Positions 5,144-36,087 of a stretch of 64,000 nucleotides of DNA are shown here, piece after piece (the first letter of the stretch is position 1; every line of letters begins with the position of its first letter). Both the position numbers and the translations under genes were made by a program. Below the pieces are notes generated by a model that searched no databases, was not told the DNA's origin, and saw only the letters and a list, made by a program, of their open reading frames with translations. The stretch is from Thermoanaerobaculia bacterium (GTDB lineage: Bacteria; Acidobacteriota; Thermoanaerobaculia; Gp7-AA8), in the NCBI GenBank assembly GCA_963715895.1, contig OY970284.1:2441484-2505483 (forward strand), in the 5' to 3' direction.

Positions 5144-5258
5144 GGATTCGCCTCGGTGCACGTATCGCACCGATCCAGCCATTAGTCTCTGAGCTTCGCG
5201 GCAGGCCAATGCTACTGCGTGGTAAGTGAGCCAATAGGGAGACCAATGTGGCACAGAC

Positions 5259-6613
5259 CACAGTTGTCCAAATTAGGTTAGGAGAATTTGGCCCTCGACG
5301 GAAACGCCGGGCTCTGTAGGATTAGGCAGTTCGACCAAGAACGACCGATCAACAGGAGGCCCAGCGTTGAGTGCATTTTCTAGCGTATTCGGACAGATTC
5401 TCAAGTTGTTTCCCCGGGCAGAGTTCGAGCAGTTGGTTCGAGAGGCCAAGGCCGAGAGGCACGCTCGAGGGTTCACCTGTTGGCAGCAGTTCGTGGCGAT
5501 GCTGTTTTGCCAGTTGGGCAAGGCCCAATCGCTTCGTGAGATATGCCAGGGACTGGCCTCGGTGGAAGGGAAGCTCAATCACCTCGGTATCGAGGAGGCG
5601 CCGAACAAGTCCACCCTTTCCTACGCAAACGCCCACCGGCCGTGGGAGTTGTACCAGCTCGTTTTCGAGCAGATGTATCAGCGCTGCCGTCAGATTGCAC
5701 CGAAGCATAAGCTGCGGTTCAAGAACCCGTTGCTGTCGATCGACGCAACCGTGATCGAGCTTTGCGCGAGCCTGTTTGACTGGGCTCACTACAAGCAGAC
5801 CAAGGGAGCGGTGAAGCTTCACATGATTCTCGATCACAACGGGCTGCTACCGAGCTTCTGCCTCATCACCGAAGCCCGAAAGTACGACGTGACAGTGGCT
5901 CGGGACTGGGATTTCCCAGCCGGTACGATCATCGCTTTCGATCGTGGATACATCGACTTCCGCTGGTTTCGCTCACTCGACCAACGCGGCATCTTCTTCG
6001 TCACGCGACTCAAACGACGGACGACCTATTCTGTGGTCAAAGAGAACCCCATTCCTCAGAAGGGCGGCGTTCTTCGCGATGCCACCATCCAGCTGACCAG
6101 CCGGCAACTCAGAGGCGGTTCCTCTCCACTTCTTCGCTTGGTCGAGTATCGCGCTCAGGACGGCCGGACCTATGAGTTTCTCACCAACCATCTGAGCTTC
6201 GGACCAACCACCATCGCTGCCATCTATGAACAGCGATGGCAGATCGAGTCGTTTTTTAAAGCCATCAAGCAGAACCTGCGCATCAAGACCTTCGTGGGGA
6301 CCTCCGCGAATGCTCTTCACATCCAGGTCTGGACGGCTCTGATCGCCATCCTCACGCTTCGGTACCTCAAGCTACGCTCCACGTTCGGATGGGCTCTGTC
6401 GAATCTGCTCGCCATCTTGCGGTTCAACCTGTTCGCTTACCGCGATCTGTGGTCCTGGCTCAACGACCCGTTCACTCCACCGCCTCTCCCTCCACCCGCT
6501 CAACTCTCCCTCAATTTGGACAGCATCTGAGGGGGTCGATCTCACTTCCCGTCAAAAATGACTCGTACGCTCAGCAGAACCGGCCGTTTCTCAACCTAAT
6601 TTGGACAGCTGTG
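5259..6613 (+). mobile_element. IS4-family insertion sequence, copy 1 (1355 bp)
   Basis: 22-bp imperfect terminal IRs cacagTtgtccaaattaggtt / cacagCtgtccaaattaggtt. Flanked by perfect 9-bp direct repeat ggcacagac (5250-5258 and 6614-6622). Identical to copy 2 over its full length. Confidence 0.85.
5367..6530 (+). CDS. IS4-family DDE transposase
   Basis: 387 aa; C-terminal YEQRWQIESFFKAIKQNL (YREK-type) motif and DDE_Tnp_1-like architecture. TTG start as given in the ORF track. Confidence 0.85.
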   Translation: MSAFSSVFGQILKLFPRAEFEQLVREAKAERHARGFTCWQQFVAMLFCQLGKAQSLREICQGLASVEGKLNHLGIEEAPNKSTLSYANAHRPWELYQLVFEQMYQRCRQIAPKHKLRFKNPLLSIDATVIELCASLFDWAHYKQTKGAVKLHMILDHNGLLPSFCLITEARKYDVTVARDWDFPAGTIIAFDRGYIDFRWFRSLDQRGIFFVTRLKRRTTYSVVKENPIPQKGGVLRDATIQLTSRQLRGGSSPLLRLVEYRAQDGRTYEFLTNHLSFGPTTIAAIYEQRWQIESFFKAIKQNLRIKTFVGTSANALHIQVWTALIAILTLRYLKLRSTFGWALSNLLAILRFNLFAYRDLWSWLNDPFTPPPLPPPAQLSLNLDSI

Positions 6614-6715
6614 GGCACAGACACTCTTGTCTGTGCCGGATCTCGCCACGACCCAAGACGCAAGCCCTCAGCGGCGGGCGGCTCCGGCCGGGGCACAGAC
6701 AAGAGTGTCTGTGCC
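6614..6715. repeat. 102-bp inter-IS spacer made of two inverted copies of the 24-bp hairpin ggcacagaca-ctct/agag-tgtctgtgcc flanking 54 bp
   Basis: 6614-6637 ggcacagacactcttgtctgtgcc; 6692-6715 ggcacagacaagagtgtctgtgcc. Outer halves continue as caatgtggcacagac (5244-5258) and gtctgtgccacattgg (8071-8086). Confidence 0.8.
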
Positions 6716-8070
6716 CACAGTTGTCCAAATTAGGTTAGGAGAATTTGGCCCTCGACGGAAACGCCGGGCTCTGTAGGATTAGGCAGTTCGACCAAGAACG
6801 ACCGATCAACAGGAGGCCCAGCGTTGAGTGCATTTTCTAGCGTATTCGGACAGATTCTCAAGTTGTTTCCCCGGGCAGAGTTCGAGCAGTTGGTTCGAGA
6901 GGCCAAGGCCGAGAGGCACGCTCGAGGGTTCACCTGTTGGCAGCAGTTCGTGGCGATGCTGTTTTGCCAGTTGGGCAAGGCCCAATCGCTTCGTGAGATA
7001 TGCCAGGGACTGGCCTCGGTGGAAGGGAAGCTCAATCACCTCGGTATCGAGGAGGCGCCGAACAAGTCCACCCTTTCCTACGCAAACGCCCACCGGCCGT
7101 GGGAGTTGTACCAGCTCGTTTTCGAGCAGATGTATCAGCGCTGCCGTCAGATTGCACCGAAGCATAAGCTGCGGTTCAAGAACCCGTTGCTGTCGATCGA
7201 CGCAACCGTGATCGAGCTTTGCGCGAGCCTGTTTGACTGGGCTCACTACAAGCAGACCAAGGGAGCGGTGAAGCTTCACATGATTCTCGATCACAACGGG
7301 CTGCTACCGAGCTTCTGCCTCATCACCGAAGCCCGAAAGTACGACGTGACAGTGGCTCGGGACTGGGATTTCCCAGCCGGTACGATCATCGCTTTCGATC
7401 GTGGATACATCGACTTCCGCTGGTTTCGCTCACTCGACCAACGCGGCATCTTCTTCGTCACGCGACTCAAACGACGGACGACCTATTCTGTGGTCAAAGA
7501 GAACCCCATTCCTCAGAAGGGCGGCGTTCTTCGCGATGCCACCATCCAGCTGACCAGCCGGCAACTCAGAGGCGGTTCCTCTCCACTTCTTCGCTTGGTC
7601 GAGTATCGCGCTCAGGACGGCCGGACCTATGAGTTTCTCACCAACCATCTGAGCTTCGGACCAACCACCATCGCTGCCATCTATGAACAGCGATGGCAGA
7701 TCGAGTCGTTTTTTAAAGCCATCAAGCAGAACCTGCGCATCAAGACCTTCGTGGGGACCTCCGCGAATGCTCTTCACATCCAGGTCTGGACGGCTCTGAT
7801 CGCCATCCTCACGCTTCGGTACCTCAAGCTACGCTCCACGTTCGGATGGGCTCTGTCGAATCTGCTCGCCATCTTGCGGTTCAACCTGTTCGCTTACCGC
7901 GATCTGTGGTCCTGGCTCAACGACCCGTTCACTCCACCGCCTCTCCCTCCACCCGCTCAACTCTCCCTCAATTTGGACAGCATCTGAGGGGGTCGATCTC
8001 ACTTCCCGTCAAAAATGACTCGTACGCTCAGCAGAACCGGCCGTTTCTCAACCTAATTTGGACAGCTGTG
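6716..8070 (+). mobile_element. IS4-family insertion sequence, copy 2 (1355 bp, 100% identical to copy 1)
   Basis: Same IRs as copy 1. Flanked by perfect 9-bp direct repeat gtctgtgcc (6707-6715 and 8071-8079), which is the reverse complement of the copy-1 TSD. Confidence 0.85.
6824..7987 (+). CDS. IS4-family DDE transposase (second identical copy)
   Basis: Protein identical to 5367..6530. Confidence 0.85.
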   Translation: MSAFSSVFGQILKLFPRAEFEQLVREAKAERHARGFTCWQQFVAMLFCQLGKAQSLREICQGLASVEGKLNHLGIEEAPNKSTLSYANAHRPWELYQLVFEQMYQRCRQIAPKHKLRFKNPLLSIDATVIELCASLFDWAHYKQTKGAVKLHMILDHNGLLPSFCLITEARKYDVTVARDWDFPAGTIIAFDRGYIDFRWFRSLDQRGIFFVTRLKRRTTYSVVKENPIPQKGGVLRDATIQLTSRQLRGGSSPLLRLVEYRAQDGRTYEFLTNHLSFGPTTIAAIYEQRWQIESFFKAIKQNLRIKTFVGTSANALHIQVWTALIAILTLRYLKLRSTFGWALSNLLAILRFNLFAYRDLWSWLNDPFTPPPLPPPAQLSLNLDSI

Positions 8071-8134
8071 GTCTGTGCCACATTGGTCCCTGGTTTCCGG
8101 CACCAACGGACAACGCGGCGCGAAGCGCCGCGCC

Positions 8135-18633: not shown

Positions 18634-18762
18634 GGCTTGGCTCCTTCCGGTACGAAAAGGATGCAAGCGGGTGGCCGGAAAGTGTGGATGGGCACGGTCG
18701 GGGATTGGCAAGCGGGTCAGTCACCTCACCGAGTTTGCCGCGAAAGCGCGGCTTCGCCGCCG

Positions 18763-18861
18763 GGCACAGACAAGAGTGTCTGTGCCACATTGCCCCTCGG
18801 TATTGCTGCAATGTGGAGTCTTCGCCGGATCTAATGTGGCACAGACACTCTTGTCTGTGCC
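18763..18861. repeat. inverted pair of the 24/30-nt hairpin element (ggcacagacaAGAGtgtctgtgccacattg ... aatgtggcacagacaCTCTtgtctgtgcc), nested inside an outer IR cgcggcttcgccgcc / ggcggcgaagccgc
   Basis: 18763-18786 and 18838-18861. Same element as at the IS locus and inside the PFOR gene. Confidence 0.8.
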
Positions 18862-18888
18862 GTGCGGCGAAGCCGCACGTTTGCCCGC

Positions 18889-32370: not shown

Positions 32371-32460
32371 GTGTGATCCCCATCACCCGCCCCCTTGACG
32401 CGCGTCATCCGTCGCTGTTCGTGCGCGACGTACCTTGCAGTTCGAAGGAGACGCGCCGCC

Positions 32461-35400
32461 ATGTCGCTCGCCGAAGTCCTCAATCCGCATCAGAAAGCAC
32501 CGCAGAAGAACGTCGTCGAATACGCGATGGTCGACGGCAACGAAGCCGTGGCCCGCATCGCCTACGCGATGAACGAAGTGATCGCCATCTATCCGATCAC
32601 GCCATCCTCCTCGATGGGTGAATGGGCGGATGCCTGGTCGGCGGCAAAGCAGAAGAATCTCTGGGGGACGATTCCGGCGGTCGTGGAGATGCAGAGCGAG
32701 GGGGGCGCGGCGGGAGCGGTGCATGGCGCGTTGCAGACCGGATCGCTTGCCACGACCTTCACCTCGTCGCAGGGCCTGCTGCTGATGATCCCGAATATGT
32801 ACAAGATCGCCGGCGAGCTCACCCCGGCGGTGTTCCATGTCGCGGCGCGCTCCCTGGCCACGCACGCGTTGTCGATCTTCGGCGATCACTCCGACGTGAT
32901 GTCGGTCCGCTCGACCGGCTGGGTGATGCTCTGCTCGGCCAGCGTTCAGGAAGCACAGGATTTCGCCATGATCGCGCACGCCGCCACGCTAGAGGCGCGC
33001 ATCCCCTTCCTGCATTTCTTCGACGGCTTCCGCACGTCGCACGAGATCGCCCGGATCGAAGTGCTTTCCGAGGATCAGATGAGGGCGATGATCGACCTCG
33101 AGCTGGTCTTCGATCACCGCTCCCGCGCCCTGTCGCCCGATCATCCGGTCATCCGCGGTACGGCGCAGAACCCGGATGTCTTCTTCCAGTCGCGGGAACG
33201 GTCCAATCCGTTCTATCGCGACTGCGCATCGATCGTCGTCGAGACGATGGAGCGCTTCGCGCGCGTCACCGGCCGCGCCTACGCGCCGTTCGAATATCAC
33301 GGTGATCCTGTAGCTGAGCGCGTAGTGATCGTCCTCGGCTCGGCCGCCGAGACGCTGCATGAGACCGTCGACGTGTTGCGGGATCAGGGAGAACGCGTCG
33401 GCGTGCTGAAGGTGCGGCTCTATCGCCCCTTCGACAACCAACGCTTCCTCGATGCACTGCCGGAGTCGGCCCGCGCCATCGCCGTGCTCGACCGCACCAA
33501 GGAGCCCGGCGCCGCTGGTGAGCCGCTCTATCTCGACGTCGTCAACGCTCTCTTCGACTCCGACCGCCGCCCGCGCGTGATCGGCGGACGCTACGGCCTC
33601 TCCTCGAAGGAGTTCACTCCGGCCATGGCCAAAGGCGTTTTCGATCATCTCCTCGACCCCAAGCCGCGGAAACAGTTCACCGTGGGGATCGTCGACGACG
33701 TGACGCACCTGAGCATCGACTACGACCGGGCGTTTTCTACTGAGACCACTGACGTCTACCGCGCCATGTTCTACGGACTGGGGTCGGACGGCACGGTCGG
33801 CGCGAACAAGAACACCATCAAGATCATCGGCGAGGAGGGTGGCCGCTTCGCGCAGGGCTACTTCGTCTACGACTCGAAAAAAGCGGGGGCGATCACGGTG
33901 TCGCACCTTCGTTTCGGACCTCGGCCGATCCGCTCGACGTATCTGGTCACCAGCGCGAACTTCATCGCCTGCCACCAGCCACAGTTCGTCGAACGCGTCG
34001 ACATGCTGAAGGACCTGGCGCCGGGCGGGACGTTCCTGCTCAACGCGCCGGCGGGTTTCATTCTGCCGCGCACGTTCGCGGCGCAGTTGGCCGCGAAGAA
34101 GGCACGCGTCTTTGCCATCGACGCCACGCGCGTGGCCGCCGAGTGCGGCCTCGGCAACCGCATCAATACTCTGATGCAGGTCTGCTTCTTTGCCACCGCC
34201 GAGGTGCTGCCGATCGAGGAGGCGCTGGAAGCCGTCCGCGAGACCATCCGCAAGACCTACGCGAAGAAGGGCGAGAAGGTCGTGGCCATGAATCTCCGCG
34301 CGGTCGACGCCGCGCTGCAGAGTCTGCGTCCGATCGCGATCGACACGGAAGCACAGACAAGAGTGTCTGTGCCACAAGAGACAGGAGTGTCTGTGTCACA
34401 AAAGGAGAGCCAATGTGGCACAGACACTCTTGTCTGTGCCGGGCCGCTCCGCGACGTCATCCTGCCGATCATCGAAGGCCGCGGTGAGGATCTCCCGGTC
34501 AGCGCCATGCCGTGCGACGGCACGTTCCCTTCCTCCACCGCGCGCTACGAGAAGCGCAACCTCGCCACCGAGATCCCGGTGTGGGATCCGGTCTCCTGCA
34601 TCCAGTGCGGCAAGTGTGCGATGGTCTGTCCGCACGCGGCCATCCGGATCAAGGCCTATGACCAGTCGCTGCTGGAAGGCGCGCCGGCCACGCTCAAGTC
34701 GCTGACGCCGATGCACAAGGATTGGGCAGGGCTGGCGTACACCATCCAGGTCGCACCGGAGGACTGCACCGGTTGCACGATCTGCGTCGACGTCTGCCCG
34801 GCCAAGAGCAAGAGCGTTCCAGACCGCAAGTCGCTTTACATGCAGCCGCAGCCGCCGCTGCGCGATGCGGAGCGCGAGAACTGGAACTGGTTCCTCGATC
34901 TGCCGGAGCTCGACCGATCGAAACTCAATCCGACGCTGATCCGGCATCAGCAGCTCCAACAGCCGATGTTCGAGTTCTCCGGCGCCTGCTCCGGCTGCGG
35001 CGAGACGCCGTATGTAAAGCTGCTCACACAGCTCTTCGGCGACCGCCTGGTCGTGGCCAATGCCACCGGCTGCTCGTCGATCTACGGCGGCAATCTGCCG
35101 ACGACGCCCTGGTCGACGAACCGTGACGGCCGCGGCCCCGCCTGGGCGAACTCCCTCTTCGAGGACAACGCCGAGTTCGGCCTCGGCTTCCGCGTTTCGA
35201 TCGACAAACAGCGTGACTTTGCCATCGAGCTGCTGAAGTCTCTCGCCCCCGCCGTCGGCGAGAACCTGGCGGCCTCGATCATCGATGCCACCCAGCGCGA
35301 CGATGCCGAGATCTTCGAGCAGCGCAAGCGCGTCGAGCTGCTCAAAGTCGCTCTGCGCCGCCTGGAGCTGAAGACCCGGATGCACAAGCTCGATCCGACC

Positions 35401-36087
35401 GACGAGCAACAGCTCCTGGCGCTGGCCGACTTGCTCGTTAAAAAGTCCGTGTGGATCCTCGGCGGCGATGGCTGGGCCTACGACATCGGCTTTGGCGGAC
35501 TCGATCACGTCCTGGCCAGCGGCCGGAACGTGAAGGTGCTCGTCCTCGACACCGAGGTCTATTCGAACACTGGCGGACAGATGTCGAAGGCGACCCCCCG
35601 CGCGGCCGTGGCCAAGTTCGCCGCCGGCGGCAAGGCCGCCAGGAAGAAGGACCTCGGCCTGATCGCGATGACGTACGGGCACGTCTATGTCGCCAGCGTG
35701 GCCATGGGCGCGCGTGACGAGCACACGCTCAAATCGTTCATCGAAGCCGAGGCGTATGACGGCCCGTCGCTGATCATCGCCTACAGCGCCTGTGTCGCCC
35801 ACGGCTACGATCTGGGGACATCGCTGCAGCACCAGAAGACGCTGGTCGAATCCGGCCAGTGGCTGCTCTACCGCTACAACCCCGAGCGCACCGCTGAAGG
35901 CAAGAACCCGCTCCAGCTCGACTCGCGCGCCCTCAAGCTCCCCGTCGAGAAGTTCCTTCGGATGGAGAACCGCTTCAACCAACTGCTGAAGAACGACACC
36001 GAGGAATCCCGCAACGTGATCGCCGCCGCGCAGCACGACGTCGACGCACGGTGGAAGATGTACAGCTATTTGGCGGCGGAGAAGTGA
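32461..36087 (+). CDS. por: pyruvate:ferredoxin (flavodoxin) oxidoreductase, single-chain NifJ/Por type (1208 aa)
   Basis: Domains I-III, two ferredoxin-type 4Fe-4S motifs (CIQCGKCAMVCP, CTGCTICVDVCP), TPP-binding GDGWAYDIGFGGLDHVLASGRNVKVLVLDTEVYSNTGGQ. Start at ATG 32461 (MSLAEVLNPHQKAPQKNVVEYAMVDGNE). Confidence 0.9.
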   Translation: MSLAEVLNPHQKAPQKNVVEYAMVDGNEAVARIAYAMNEVIAIYPITPSSSMGEWADAWSAAKQKNLWGTIPAVVEMQSEGGAAGAVHGALQTGSLATTFTSSQGLLLMIPNMYKIAGELTPAVFHVAARSLATHALSIFGDHSDVMSVRSTGWVMLCSASVQEAQDFAMIAHAATLEARIPFLHFFDGFRTSHEIARIEVLSEDQMRAMIDLELVFDHRSRALSPDHPVIRGTAQNPDVFFQSRERSNPFYRDCASIVVETMERFARVTGRAYAPFEYHGDPVAERVVIVLGSAAETLHETVDVLRDQGERVGVLKVRLYRPFDNQRFLDALPESARAIAVLDRTKEPGAAGEPLYLDVVNALFDSDRRPRVIGGRYGLSSKEFTPAMAKGVFDHLLDPKPRKQFTVGIVDDVTHLSIDYDRAFSTETTDVYRAMFYGLGSDGTVGANKNTIKIIGEEGGRFAQGYFVYDSKKAGAITVSHLRFGPRPIRSTYLVTSANFIACHQPQFVERVDMLKDLAPGGTFLLNAPAGFILPRTFAAQLAAKKARVFAIDATRVAAECGLGNRINTLMQVCFFATAEVLPIEEALEAVRETIRKTYAKKGEKVVAMNLRAVDAALQSLRPIAIDTEAQTRVSVPQETGVSVSQKESQCGTDTLVCAGPLRDVILPIIEGRGEDLPVSAMPCDGTFPSSTARYEKRNLATEIPVWDPVSCIQCGKCAMVCPHAAIRIKAYDQSLLEGAPATLKSLTPMHKDWAGLAYTIQVAPEDCTGCTICVDVCPAKSKSVPDRKSLYMQPQPPLRDAERENWNWFLDLPELDRSKLNPTLIRHQQLQQPMFEFSGACSGCGETPYVKLLTQLFGDRLVVANATGCSSIYGGNLPTTPWSTNRDGRGPAWANSLFEDNAEFGLGFRVSIDKQRDFAIELLKSLAPAVGENLAASIIDATQRDDAEIFEQRKRVELLKVALRRLELKTRMHKLDPTDEQQLLALADLLVKKSVWILGGDGWAYDIGFGGLDHVLASGRNVKVLVLDTEVYSNTGGQMSKATPRAAVAKFAAGGKAARKKDLGLIAMTYGHVYVASVAMGARDEHTLKSFIEAEAYDGPSLIIAYSACVAHGYDLGTSLQHQKTLVESGQWLLYRYNPERTAEGKNPLQLDSRALKLPVEKFLRMENRFNQLLKNDTEESRNVIAAAQHDVDARWKMYSYLAAEK
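34351..34440. repeat. inverted pair of the 24/30-nt hairpin element inserted in-frame inside the por coding sequence
   Basis: 34351-34373 gcacagacaagagtgtctgtgcc; 34411-34440 caatgtggcacagacactcttgtctgtgcc; degenerate third copy 34381-34399. Translated as ...EAQTRVSVPQETGVSVSQKESQCGTDTLVCAG... without stop or frameshift. Confidence 0.8.

Follow-up and report, generated by a model that had tools for sequence, protein, structure and literature searches.

Two identical copies of an IS4Sa-like insertion sequence occupy the same arm position in an inverted pair of REP-like hairpins from a Thermoanaerobaculia bacterium

A stretch of 64,000 nucleotides from a Thermoanaerobaculia bacterium (assembly GCA_963715895.1, contig OY970284.1, positions 2,441,484 to 2,505,483 of the forward strand), hereafter the window, contains two identical copies of an insertion sequence (IS), each lodged in one member of an inverted pair of short hairpin elements. 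Proteins encoded by the host contig group at 90% identity or above with proteins from metagenome-assembled genomes of Thermoanaerobaculia (Acidobacteriota). The locus raises the question of whether the IS selects this hairpin as its target and, if it does, which feature of the hairpin is recognized. The original prediction, made from the nucleotide sequence of the window, was that the insertions were sequence- or structure-specific and directed at an element resembling a repetitive extragenic palindrome (REP). The window copies and their relatives share a constant insertion site that is used in either orientation, a 9-bp target duplication, an IS4-family transposase and footprint-like scars in hairpins free of the IS. 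We consider it probable, at roughly 85%, that the locus was produced by two independent insertions of one active IS4Sa-like IS that is excisable and has a near-absolute specificity, in either orientation, for the hairpin arm located next to a short conserved tail.

The components of the occupied locus are given below. L-numbers designate loci or contigs of related metagenome-assembled genomes (MAGs) and soil metagenomes, and F and R are the two orientations of the hairpin unit.

5243-5258, + strand: left remnant of hairpin element 1, with the tail CCAATGT (5243-5249) and the first duplication copy GGCACAGAC (5250-5258)
5259-6613, + strand: IS copy 1, 1355 bp, with left inverted repeat (IRL) 5259-5279 and right inverted repeat (IRR) 6593-6613; the tail side of the target abuts IRL
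5367-6530, + strand: transposase gene of copy 1, 387 amino acids, TTG start with AGGAGG 7 nt upstream, domains DUF4372 and DDE_Tnp_1
6614-6637, + strand: intact hairpin of element 1, GGCACAGAC-ACTCTT-GTCTGTGCC; 6614-6622 is the second duplication copy of IS copy 1
6638-6691, no strand assigned: 54-nt spacer of the tails-outward pair, related to the spacers of other F...R pairs (L016, L043)
6692-6715, + strand: intact hairpin of element 2, inverted, GGCACAGAC-AAGAGT-GTCTGTGCC; 6707-6715 is the first duplication copy of IS copy 2
6716-8070, + strand: IS copy 2, 1355 bp, with IRL 6716-6736 and IRR 8050-8070; the tail side of the target abuts IRR
6824-7987, + strand: transposase gene of copy 2, within IS copy 2
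8071-8086, + strand: right remnant of hairpin element 2, with the second duplication copy GTCTGTGCC (8071-8079) and the tail ACATTGG (8080-8086)

As predicted, the two copies were identical (1355 of 1355 positions) and each was flanked by its own 9-bp duplication, which is GGCACAGAC on both sides of copy 1 (5250-5258 and 6614-6622) and GTCTGTGCC on both sides of copy 2 (6707-6715 and 8071-8079). The terminal inverted repeats, CACAGTTGTCCAAATTAGGTT and CACAGCTGTCCAAATTAGGTT, are 21 bp long, match at 20 of 21 positions and occur four times in the whole window. Removal in silico of each IS together with one duplication reproduced the proposed inverted hairpin pair with its 54-bp spacer, CCAATGT-GGCACAGAC-ACTCTT-GTCTGTGCC / 54 nt / GGCACAGAC-AAGAGT-GTCTGTGCC-ACATTGG. 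The reconstructed molecule is an inverted pair of 30-nt units, each consisting of the tail CCAATGT, a 9-bp stem and a 6-nt loop, in a tails-outward, F-54-R arrangement. Both insertions had also been described as duplicating the same 9 nt in the same IS orientation. The position was indeed the same, but the orientations relative to the element were opposite: both ISs run in one direction along the chromosome and the hairpin elements are inverted, so that the tail lies next to IRL in copy 1 and next to IRR in copy 2. Considering the window alone, the duplication can be read as 9 bp or as 7 bp, with an ambiguous C/G beside each end. The length was settled at 9 bp by a relative inserted outside hairpins (L084), whose ends are CAC...GTG and whose duplication is ATGTTGAAT.

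The side-by-side arrangement could be thought of as an assembly artefact, for example a merged mixture of cells carrying the IS in one or the other hairpin, in which case the targeting would still be real. Metagenome assemblies of the relatives do mis-join flanks across the IS, and no more than 102 bp separates the two identical copies. However, the window lies in a single contig of 6,643,497 bp, the 9-bp duplications are internally consistent for each copy separately, and the 102-bp spacer holds both intact hairpins, as two real insertions predict. In addition, a related pair (L012/L068) shows a footprint in the partner hairpin of the occupied unit. An artefact of this kind is thus very unlikely.

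Whether the position of the two window copies reflects a general property of the IS was addressed by a census of insertion sites, in which the query was a 20-21-nt pattern of the IS terminus without any flank sequence. The pattern scan detected 12 loci in three Thermoanaerobaculia MAGs when one genome per species was searched and 47 loci in Joint Genome Institute (JGI) metagenomes, and the census also took in contigs encoding transposases with 93% and ~75% identity. All 56 non-redundant junction flanks, 32 from the tail side and 24 from the loop side, fell at one and the same position, including those of the relatives with 75% transposase identity. The expectation that other copies would be found in the hairpin was therefore borne out in the relatives, as no junction flank of this IS lineage consisted of unrelated sequence. 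The tail-side flank reads ...(A/G)TGT-GGCACAGAC^ and the loop-side flank ^GGCACAGAC-loop-GTCTGTGCC (carets mark junctions or cuts), and the arm used is always the tail-proximal one. The distal arm, which has the same 9-bp sequence on the other strand, was used in no junction. In the occupied sites, TGT and the nine duplicated bases were conserved at 90-100% and the bases further out were not conserved. Loops differed by lineage (AAGAGT, AGAAGT and AGGAGT in the occupied sites), and the first loop bases, read in the tail-first orientation, were always AC. The two IS orientations relative to the hairpin unit were found in a ratio of about 1:1. A perfect 9-bp duplication was present in seven independent two-ended copies, i.e., the two window copies, the L013 site, L032, L033, L065 and the L080 site, and the hairpin element could be reconstructed across the IS in the window and in five other loci. 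The same data contained 37-38 intact IS-free hairpins.

Random insertion followed by the survival of only those copies that landed in harmless repeats could also lead to an association with hairpins, which are mostly intergenic and would tolerate insertions. Such a process would distribute copies across intergenic DNA and along the whole length of the repeat, and what was seen is 56 of 56 junctions at a single nucleotide position, in every case within the same one of the two arms of identical sequence, the target motif accounting for ~0.01% of the window positions. Survivorship is thus an extremely improbable explanation. We give as little credit to the idea that the hairpins are part of the mobile element, either as extensions of its ends or as a cassette mobilized along with it. 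It would account for the hairpin sequence that adjoins every IS end examined. Nevertheless, beyond the 21-bp inverted repeats the two sides consist of a direct 9-bp repeat and the two halves of the hairpin element, not of inverted repeats, and which half lies on which side depends on the orientation of the copy. Intact hairpins with no IS nearby number in the dozens, and the 63%-identical relative in L084, with the same ends and a 9-bp duplication, is in an unrelated AT-rich site.

Some points weigh against specific targeting of the arm by the IS, or limit how far the census can be extended. The source genome entered the census through the 64-kb window, and all other junctions came from relatives and metagenomes. 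Many two-ended metagenomic copies (L014, L016, L017, L019 and L071-L075) had mismatched flanks; they were excluded, and the seven clean two-ended copies were counted. Because the same left flank was joined to different right flanks in different samples, the mismatched copies are read as assembler paths through the repeated IS or as recombination between copies. The target sequence was present in these data only inside hairpins, so recognition of sequence and recognition of structure are inseparable. The apparent tandem arrangement of the two window copies rests on the assembly, and the reading of certain scars as excision footprints, presented below, assumes end-joining repair in the host. Finally, a comparison with IS-free alleles, which had been suggested as a check, produced no empty site: none was present among the loci of relatives identified through the flanking nitroreductase homologues (87-94% identity), where the orthologous spacers lacked the hairpin pair or synteny was lost. 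Because the pair is missing from the orthologous spacer of relatives, it is a lineage-specific insertion, itself mobile or recently acquired.

The mechanism that we propose is as follows. Each copy would have landed in one member of the inverted pair of ~30-nt REP-like hairpins by means of staggered 9-bp cuts that bracket the stem arm adjoining the ATGT tail, 5'-TGT^GGCACAGAC^AC-3'. Because the duplication equals the whole arm, a complete hairpin is regenerated and kept at one end of the IS, with a lone arm and the tail remaining at the other end. The element could later excise, joining both copies of the duplication, sometimes with 4-5 nt trimmed. The transposase itself probably reads duplex sequence across the tail, the arm and the start of the loop, and the extruded hairpin is probably not the recognized form. 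The site TGT^GGCACAGAC^AC contains a partial dyad, GTG.C...G.CAC, centred on the duplication, with the pairs G/C at positions 1/9 and C/G at positions 3/7 and flanking T/A and G/C pairs; the distal arm has the internal dyad pairs without the flanking ones. For a transpososome with two-fold symmetry, this difference between the arms would account for why one of them is chosen and why either orientation is accepted. Within the duplication, G1 and C9 match the target preference of Tn5, and C3 and G7 match the Tn10 hotspot consensus. Landing in an abundant and mostly intergenic repeat may also provide the IS with a safe haven.

Alternatively, the targeting may be real and the signal may be a DNA structure, such as a cruciform or a single-stranded hairpin at the replication fork, or a host tether that binds REP elements, with the cut made at a fixed distance from the loop or the tail. 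The hairpin unit folds as single-stranded DNA into a 10-bp stem (-11.8 kcal/mol, z = -5.5) and the reconstructed pair into a long hairpin of 31 bp (-49 kcal/mol), and the occupied targets tolerate the three loops listed above. Moreover, a sister IS clade seemingly inserts at the axis of a different hairpin family, and IS4-family enzymes such as those of Tn5 and Tn10 process DNA hairpins at the transposon ends. Against a structural signal, the AC at the loop start and the TGT of the tail are invariant in the occupied sites, as expected from a sequence readout, and the stem of one occupied hairpin, in L022, contains an internal mismatch (GGCCCAGAC / GTCTGTGCC). The direct 9-bp duplication of one arm also requires that this arm be paired with its complementary strand, and not with the distal arm, at strand transfer, which argues against insertion into an extruded stem. 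No case that separates the two models was found, and the data do not decide which of the two kinds of specificity mentioned in the original prediction applies; nonetheless, we regard a structural or tethered signal as unlikely and favor the readout of duplex sequence by the transposase.

The transposase includes the Pfam domains DUF4372 at the N-terminus and DDE_Tnp_1 (residues 120-328) and matches the NCBIfam model NF033592, transpos_IS4_1, with 270.7 bits against a cut-off of 115. The definition of the IS4 family (De Palmenaer et al. 2008, PMC2266710) includes a D(60-110)D(100-150)E triad and a Y(2)R(3)E(6)K signature. The transposase has the triad D126-(65)-D192-(101)-E294, with the residues assigned by motif inside the DDE_Tnp_1 match, and the signature Y287-R290-E294-K301 (YEQRWQIESFFKAIK from residue 287). 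Across 38 homologues R290, E294 and K301 were invariant and Y287 was nearly so. Other characteristics of the family are also present, namely a single open reading frame (ORF) of 387 amino acids without a frameshift, 21-bp inverted repeats and a 9-bp duplication (seven hairpin copies and L084). An AlphaFold (AF2) model built with the 38 homologues (mean predicted local distance difference test score, pLDDT, 75.5) had its best PDB fold matches in the Tn5 transposase (1muh, E = 2e-8). A PDB search with the transposase sequence returned nothing meaningful; Tn5 surfaced by the fold search only. No recorded gene matched the window transposase exactly, and the best named relatives on plasmids are the distant ISAbe18, ISPosp4 and ISRm16 (34-43% identity). 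Taken together, the motifs and the model identify a canonical IS4-family enzyme with a predicted Tn5-like fold. Members of the IS4Sa subgroup are 1150-1750 bp long and have ends CA------T and direct repeats of 8-10 bp (Table 1 in PMC2266710). With 1355 bp, the ends CACAGTTGT / CACAGCTGT (CA------T) and a 9-bp duplication, the IS fits as an IS4Sa-like element, a placement by size, end signature and duplication length.

Two other ways of selecting the target were considered and ruled out. The DDE/YREK family of the enzyme argues against an IS110-type guide RNA, and the IS and the target share no 7-mer (3.8 expected by chance). Mimicry of the IS ends by the target, CACAG being present in both, was discarded as the same target is used by relatives whose ends are CACTG or CACTA, and again there is no shared 7-mer.

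A tandem duplication of exactly the tail-proximal arm was present in 6 of 47 non-redundant IS-free units, and a duplication of the distal arm in 0 of 47. Exact 9+9 joints, ...AATGT GGCACAGAC GGCACAGAC ACTCTT..., were found in L001 (- strand, ~230; the same site as in L027) and in L039 (12002), with different flanks. The other four joints (L012/L068, L008, L057 and L003) were trimmed by 4-5 nt. The joint GGCACAGA-ACAGAC was present in L012 at 2306 (the same site as L068 at 179) and, independently, in L008, and the remaining two read GGCAC-GGCATAGAC in L057 and GGCAT-GGCACAGGC in L003 at 6664. We infer that these arm duplications are excision footprints. Their pattern would be the expected residue of excision by the transposase and re-joining of the donor flanks, and it agrees with a cut-and-paste mode such as the family uses. 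In one pair, L012/L068, the unit with the scar has an occupied unit as its partner, which suggests that the window is not the only place with double occupancy. The recent activity that had been deduced from the identity of the two copies is plausible when these footprints are considered along with it. Scars left by repeated insertion and excision would also mean that the hairpin repeats record the history of the IS.

Relatives of the IS with other targets were found as well. A second clade (L025, L028, L038, L042, L047, L060, L062, L063 and L064) has the same 20-nt terminal repeat and a transposase with ~58% identity. GACAGGC-N6-GC^ borders it at either end, in inverted orientation, and there is an apparent repeat of 10 bp (GCCTCCGGGC / GCCTCCTGGC in L064). 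L060 is inconsistent with this flank pattern and may be a chimera. From these flanks, the insertion site of the clade appears to be the axis of hairpins from another family, GACAGGC-N6-GCCTGTC, and intact hairpins of this or a related type are located nearby (L042, 873; L028, 1230 and 3578; L063, 2823). The 63%-identical relative with similar ends in L084 (1103-2459) is inserted in an AT-rich GAATGTT tandem repeat with the duplication ATGTTGAAT, so hairpin targeting is not universal in this branch of transposases. We tentatively raise the possibility, which at present seems doubtful, that the IS4Sa-type branch carries a protein-encoded, evolvable and near-absolute specificity for host hairpin repeats. 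If this were true, the DUF4372 N-terminal domain would be one possible seat of the specificity module, the joined-duplication scars would indicate reversible occupancy of the repeats, and mapping of the module would define a natural retargetable, guide-free, site-specific cut-and-paste transposase. A transposase with a Tn5 fold and a fixed site, together with sister clades that have other targets, would be useful for studies of target selection by DDE enzymes.

The comparison originally drawn was with IS1397 and ISKpn1, and the functional likeness holds in that these elements also insert specifically into an extragenic hairpin repeat organized in inverted pairs (REP or palindromic units, PU, in enterobacterial interspersed mosaic elements, BIMEs). 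They insert in the loop and generate a 3-4-bp duplication. Unlike the IS described here, they belong to the IS3 family, with two ORFs, a frameshift and copy-out/paste-in transposition. Their specificity was attributed to the transposase (PMC1525189). A closer precedent is ISRm22 from Sinorhizobium meliloti, in which all nine genomic copies are at one REP position, the axis of the palindrome (PMC1525189), and which was placed in the IS4Sa subgroup with a remark on its conserved target arms (PMC2266710). Both are IS4-family elements, and the likeness in subgroup was judged by size, the CA------T ends and duplication length. The site of ISRm22 is axial and a 6-bp direct repeat was reported for it, whereas the present IS inserts off-axis, duplicates a whole 9-bp arm and leaves a hairpin intact, and the hosts are Alphaproteobacteria in one case and Acidobacteriota in the other. 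The IS110-family elements IS621, ISPpu9, ISPpu10 and ISPa11 are similar in that all copies are found at one REP position (PMC1525189, PMC12288879). Their targeting is carried out by DEDD recombinases, for which a bridge or seek RNA serves as the guide (PMC11208160, PMC11187229). These elements have 0-2-bp repeats, whereas the IS in the window has a Tn5-like DDE transposase, a 9-bp duplication and no complementarity to its target; neither a DEDD recombinase nor a target-complementary noncoding RNA, the hallmarks of the IS110/IS1111 group, was found. Tn5 (IS50) and Tn10 (IS10) resemble it in the predicted transposase fold (1muh), the DDE and YREK motifs, the 9-bp duplication and, probably, the cut-and-paste mode, but have weak and degenerate target preferences in contrast to a single, essentially exclusive site of at least 14 bp. 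IS231A belongs to an IS4 subgroup different from that of the present IS, generates a 10-12-bp duplication and prefers a bent site of the GGG-N5-CCC type, not a hairpin arm. It is also an IS4-family member with a marked preference for a site in the repeat of another mobile element, the ends of Tn4430 (cited in PMC2266710).

ISs that target REP elements, known since IS1397, have been catalogued in five IS families that include IS4 (PMC1525189). In the 'type 1 association', all copies interrupt the same repeated palindrome at the same position (Tobes & Pareja 2006, PMC1525189), and the census in relatives showed the same element, interrupted at the same position and reconstructable across the IS. 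The IS is a new member of this already known class, and nothing is overturned, since REP targeting, including an IS4-family case, has been described since 1999-2006. What is novel with respect to the known REP-targeting ISs is the host phylum, the off-axis duplication of a whole arm, the strictness of the site and its persistence down to 75% transposase identity. These results extend the targeting of REP-type repeats to Acidobacteriota and to a Tn5-like enzyme with a site of at least 14 bp. In terms of annotation, they account for contig breaks at the hairpin repeats in these soil MAGs.

The target element itself was also characterized. The hairpin motif occurs six times in the window, versus 0 expected from shuffled sequences; the window contains 6-7 hairpin units, and 73 non-redundant units were counted in 0.48 Mb of related contigs. 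The unoccupied units of the window are the following.

18763-18861, no strand assigned: unoccupied tails-inward pair, with an R unit at 18763-18792 and an F unit at 18833-18861; two empty target sites TGTGGCACAGACAC
34350-34440, no strand assigned: unoccupied tails-inward units (R, degenerate R and F), in frame within the pyruvate:ferredoxin oxidoreductase (PFOR) ORF 32395-36087; further empty target sites

These uninterrupted copies had been noted before, at 18763-18861 and inside por, and both their presence and the location of the second group inside the PFOR ORF were verified. Their arrangement is tails-inward (R...F), however, which is opposite to the tails-outward organization of the occupied pair. 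An uninterrupted tails-outward F...R pair with a similar spacer was found elsewhere, in L043 (4658-4758). Two of the three window pairs are located between long ORFs read as genes and one is in frame inside PFOR. The repeat is common in genomes of Thermoanaerobaculia (Acidobacteriota) and is mostly intergenic. It has the features of a REP-like element, i.e., a 30-nt palindrome in many copies, with inverted doublets of both kinds and tandem arrays. In the REP super-families described so far, one end carries a conserved tetranucleotide, GTAG or CGTC (PMC3733652), and the conserved end tag of the present unit is (A/G)ATGT. No REP-associated tyrosine transposase (RAYT) was matched by tblastn with an E. 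coli RAYT query in the window and 0.41 Mb of loci, and a single-copy gene could easily lie elsewhere. Because the tag is ATGT and no RAYT was found in the 0.48 Mb searched, the unit is called REP-like and is not filed as a REP/RAYT system. A promoter and terminator scan of the IS locus gave no terminator-like site, so the hairpins are not canonical intrinsic terminators, and an Rfam scan of the window matched no family.

Additional observations concern the organization of the repeats. The hairpins at 34350-34440 lie inside an ORF of 1230 amino acids, where, relative to the solved PFOR structure 6cin, the units add ~30 residues (...AQTRVSVPQETGVSVSQKESQCGTDTLVCAG...) in a variable linker. The closest PFOR relative (P0335, 92% identity) lacks one 36-nt unit and more distant orthologues lack all of them. 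These in-gene units are reminiscent of the Rickettsia palindromic elements found inside genes. At 18740-18885, an outer inverted repeat, GCGGCTTCGCCGCC ... GGCGGCGAAGCCGC, encloses the tails-inward pair. This outer repeat recurs beside hairpins in L001, L035 and L036, and the repeat family is therefore modular. Tandem hairpin arrays with a 54-nt period consist of three units in the MAG contig L001 (1188-1320) and four in the matching metagenome contig L027 (1612-1800), so the copy number of the array varies.

A few loci showed other arrangements. In L008 (5215-5500) the left end of the IS is at the usual hairpin position and is followed by unrelated sequence and ~21-nt tandem repeats (GATGTCCTCATCGAATGGTCC...); it is either a truncated or rearranged copy of the IS or a different element with the same terminus. 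The spacer of L085 (2067-2500), orthologous to the IS locus of the window, is filled by a ~330-bp palindrome with GTCATCCTGAGG...CCTCAGGATGAC, which belongs to another repeat family. The IS in L024 is bracketed by 50-nt perfectly inverted flanks (1124-1173 and 2547-2596) that include a motif related to the L085 palindrome and show no target duplication. This locus was set aside as an insertion case, since it is probably a fold-back assembly or a nested palindrome.

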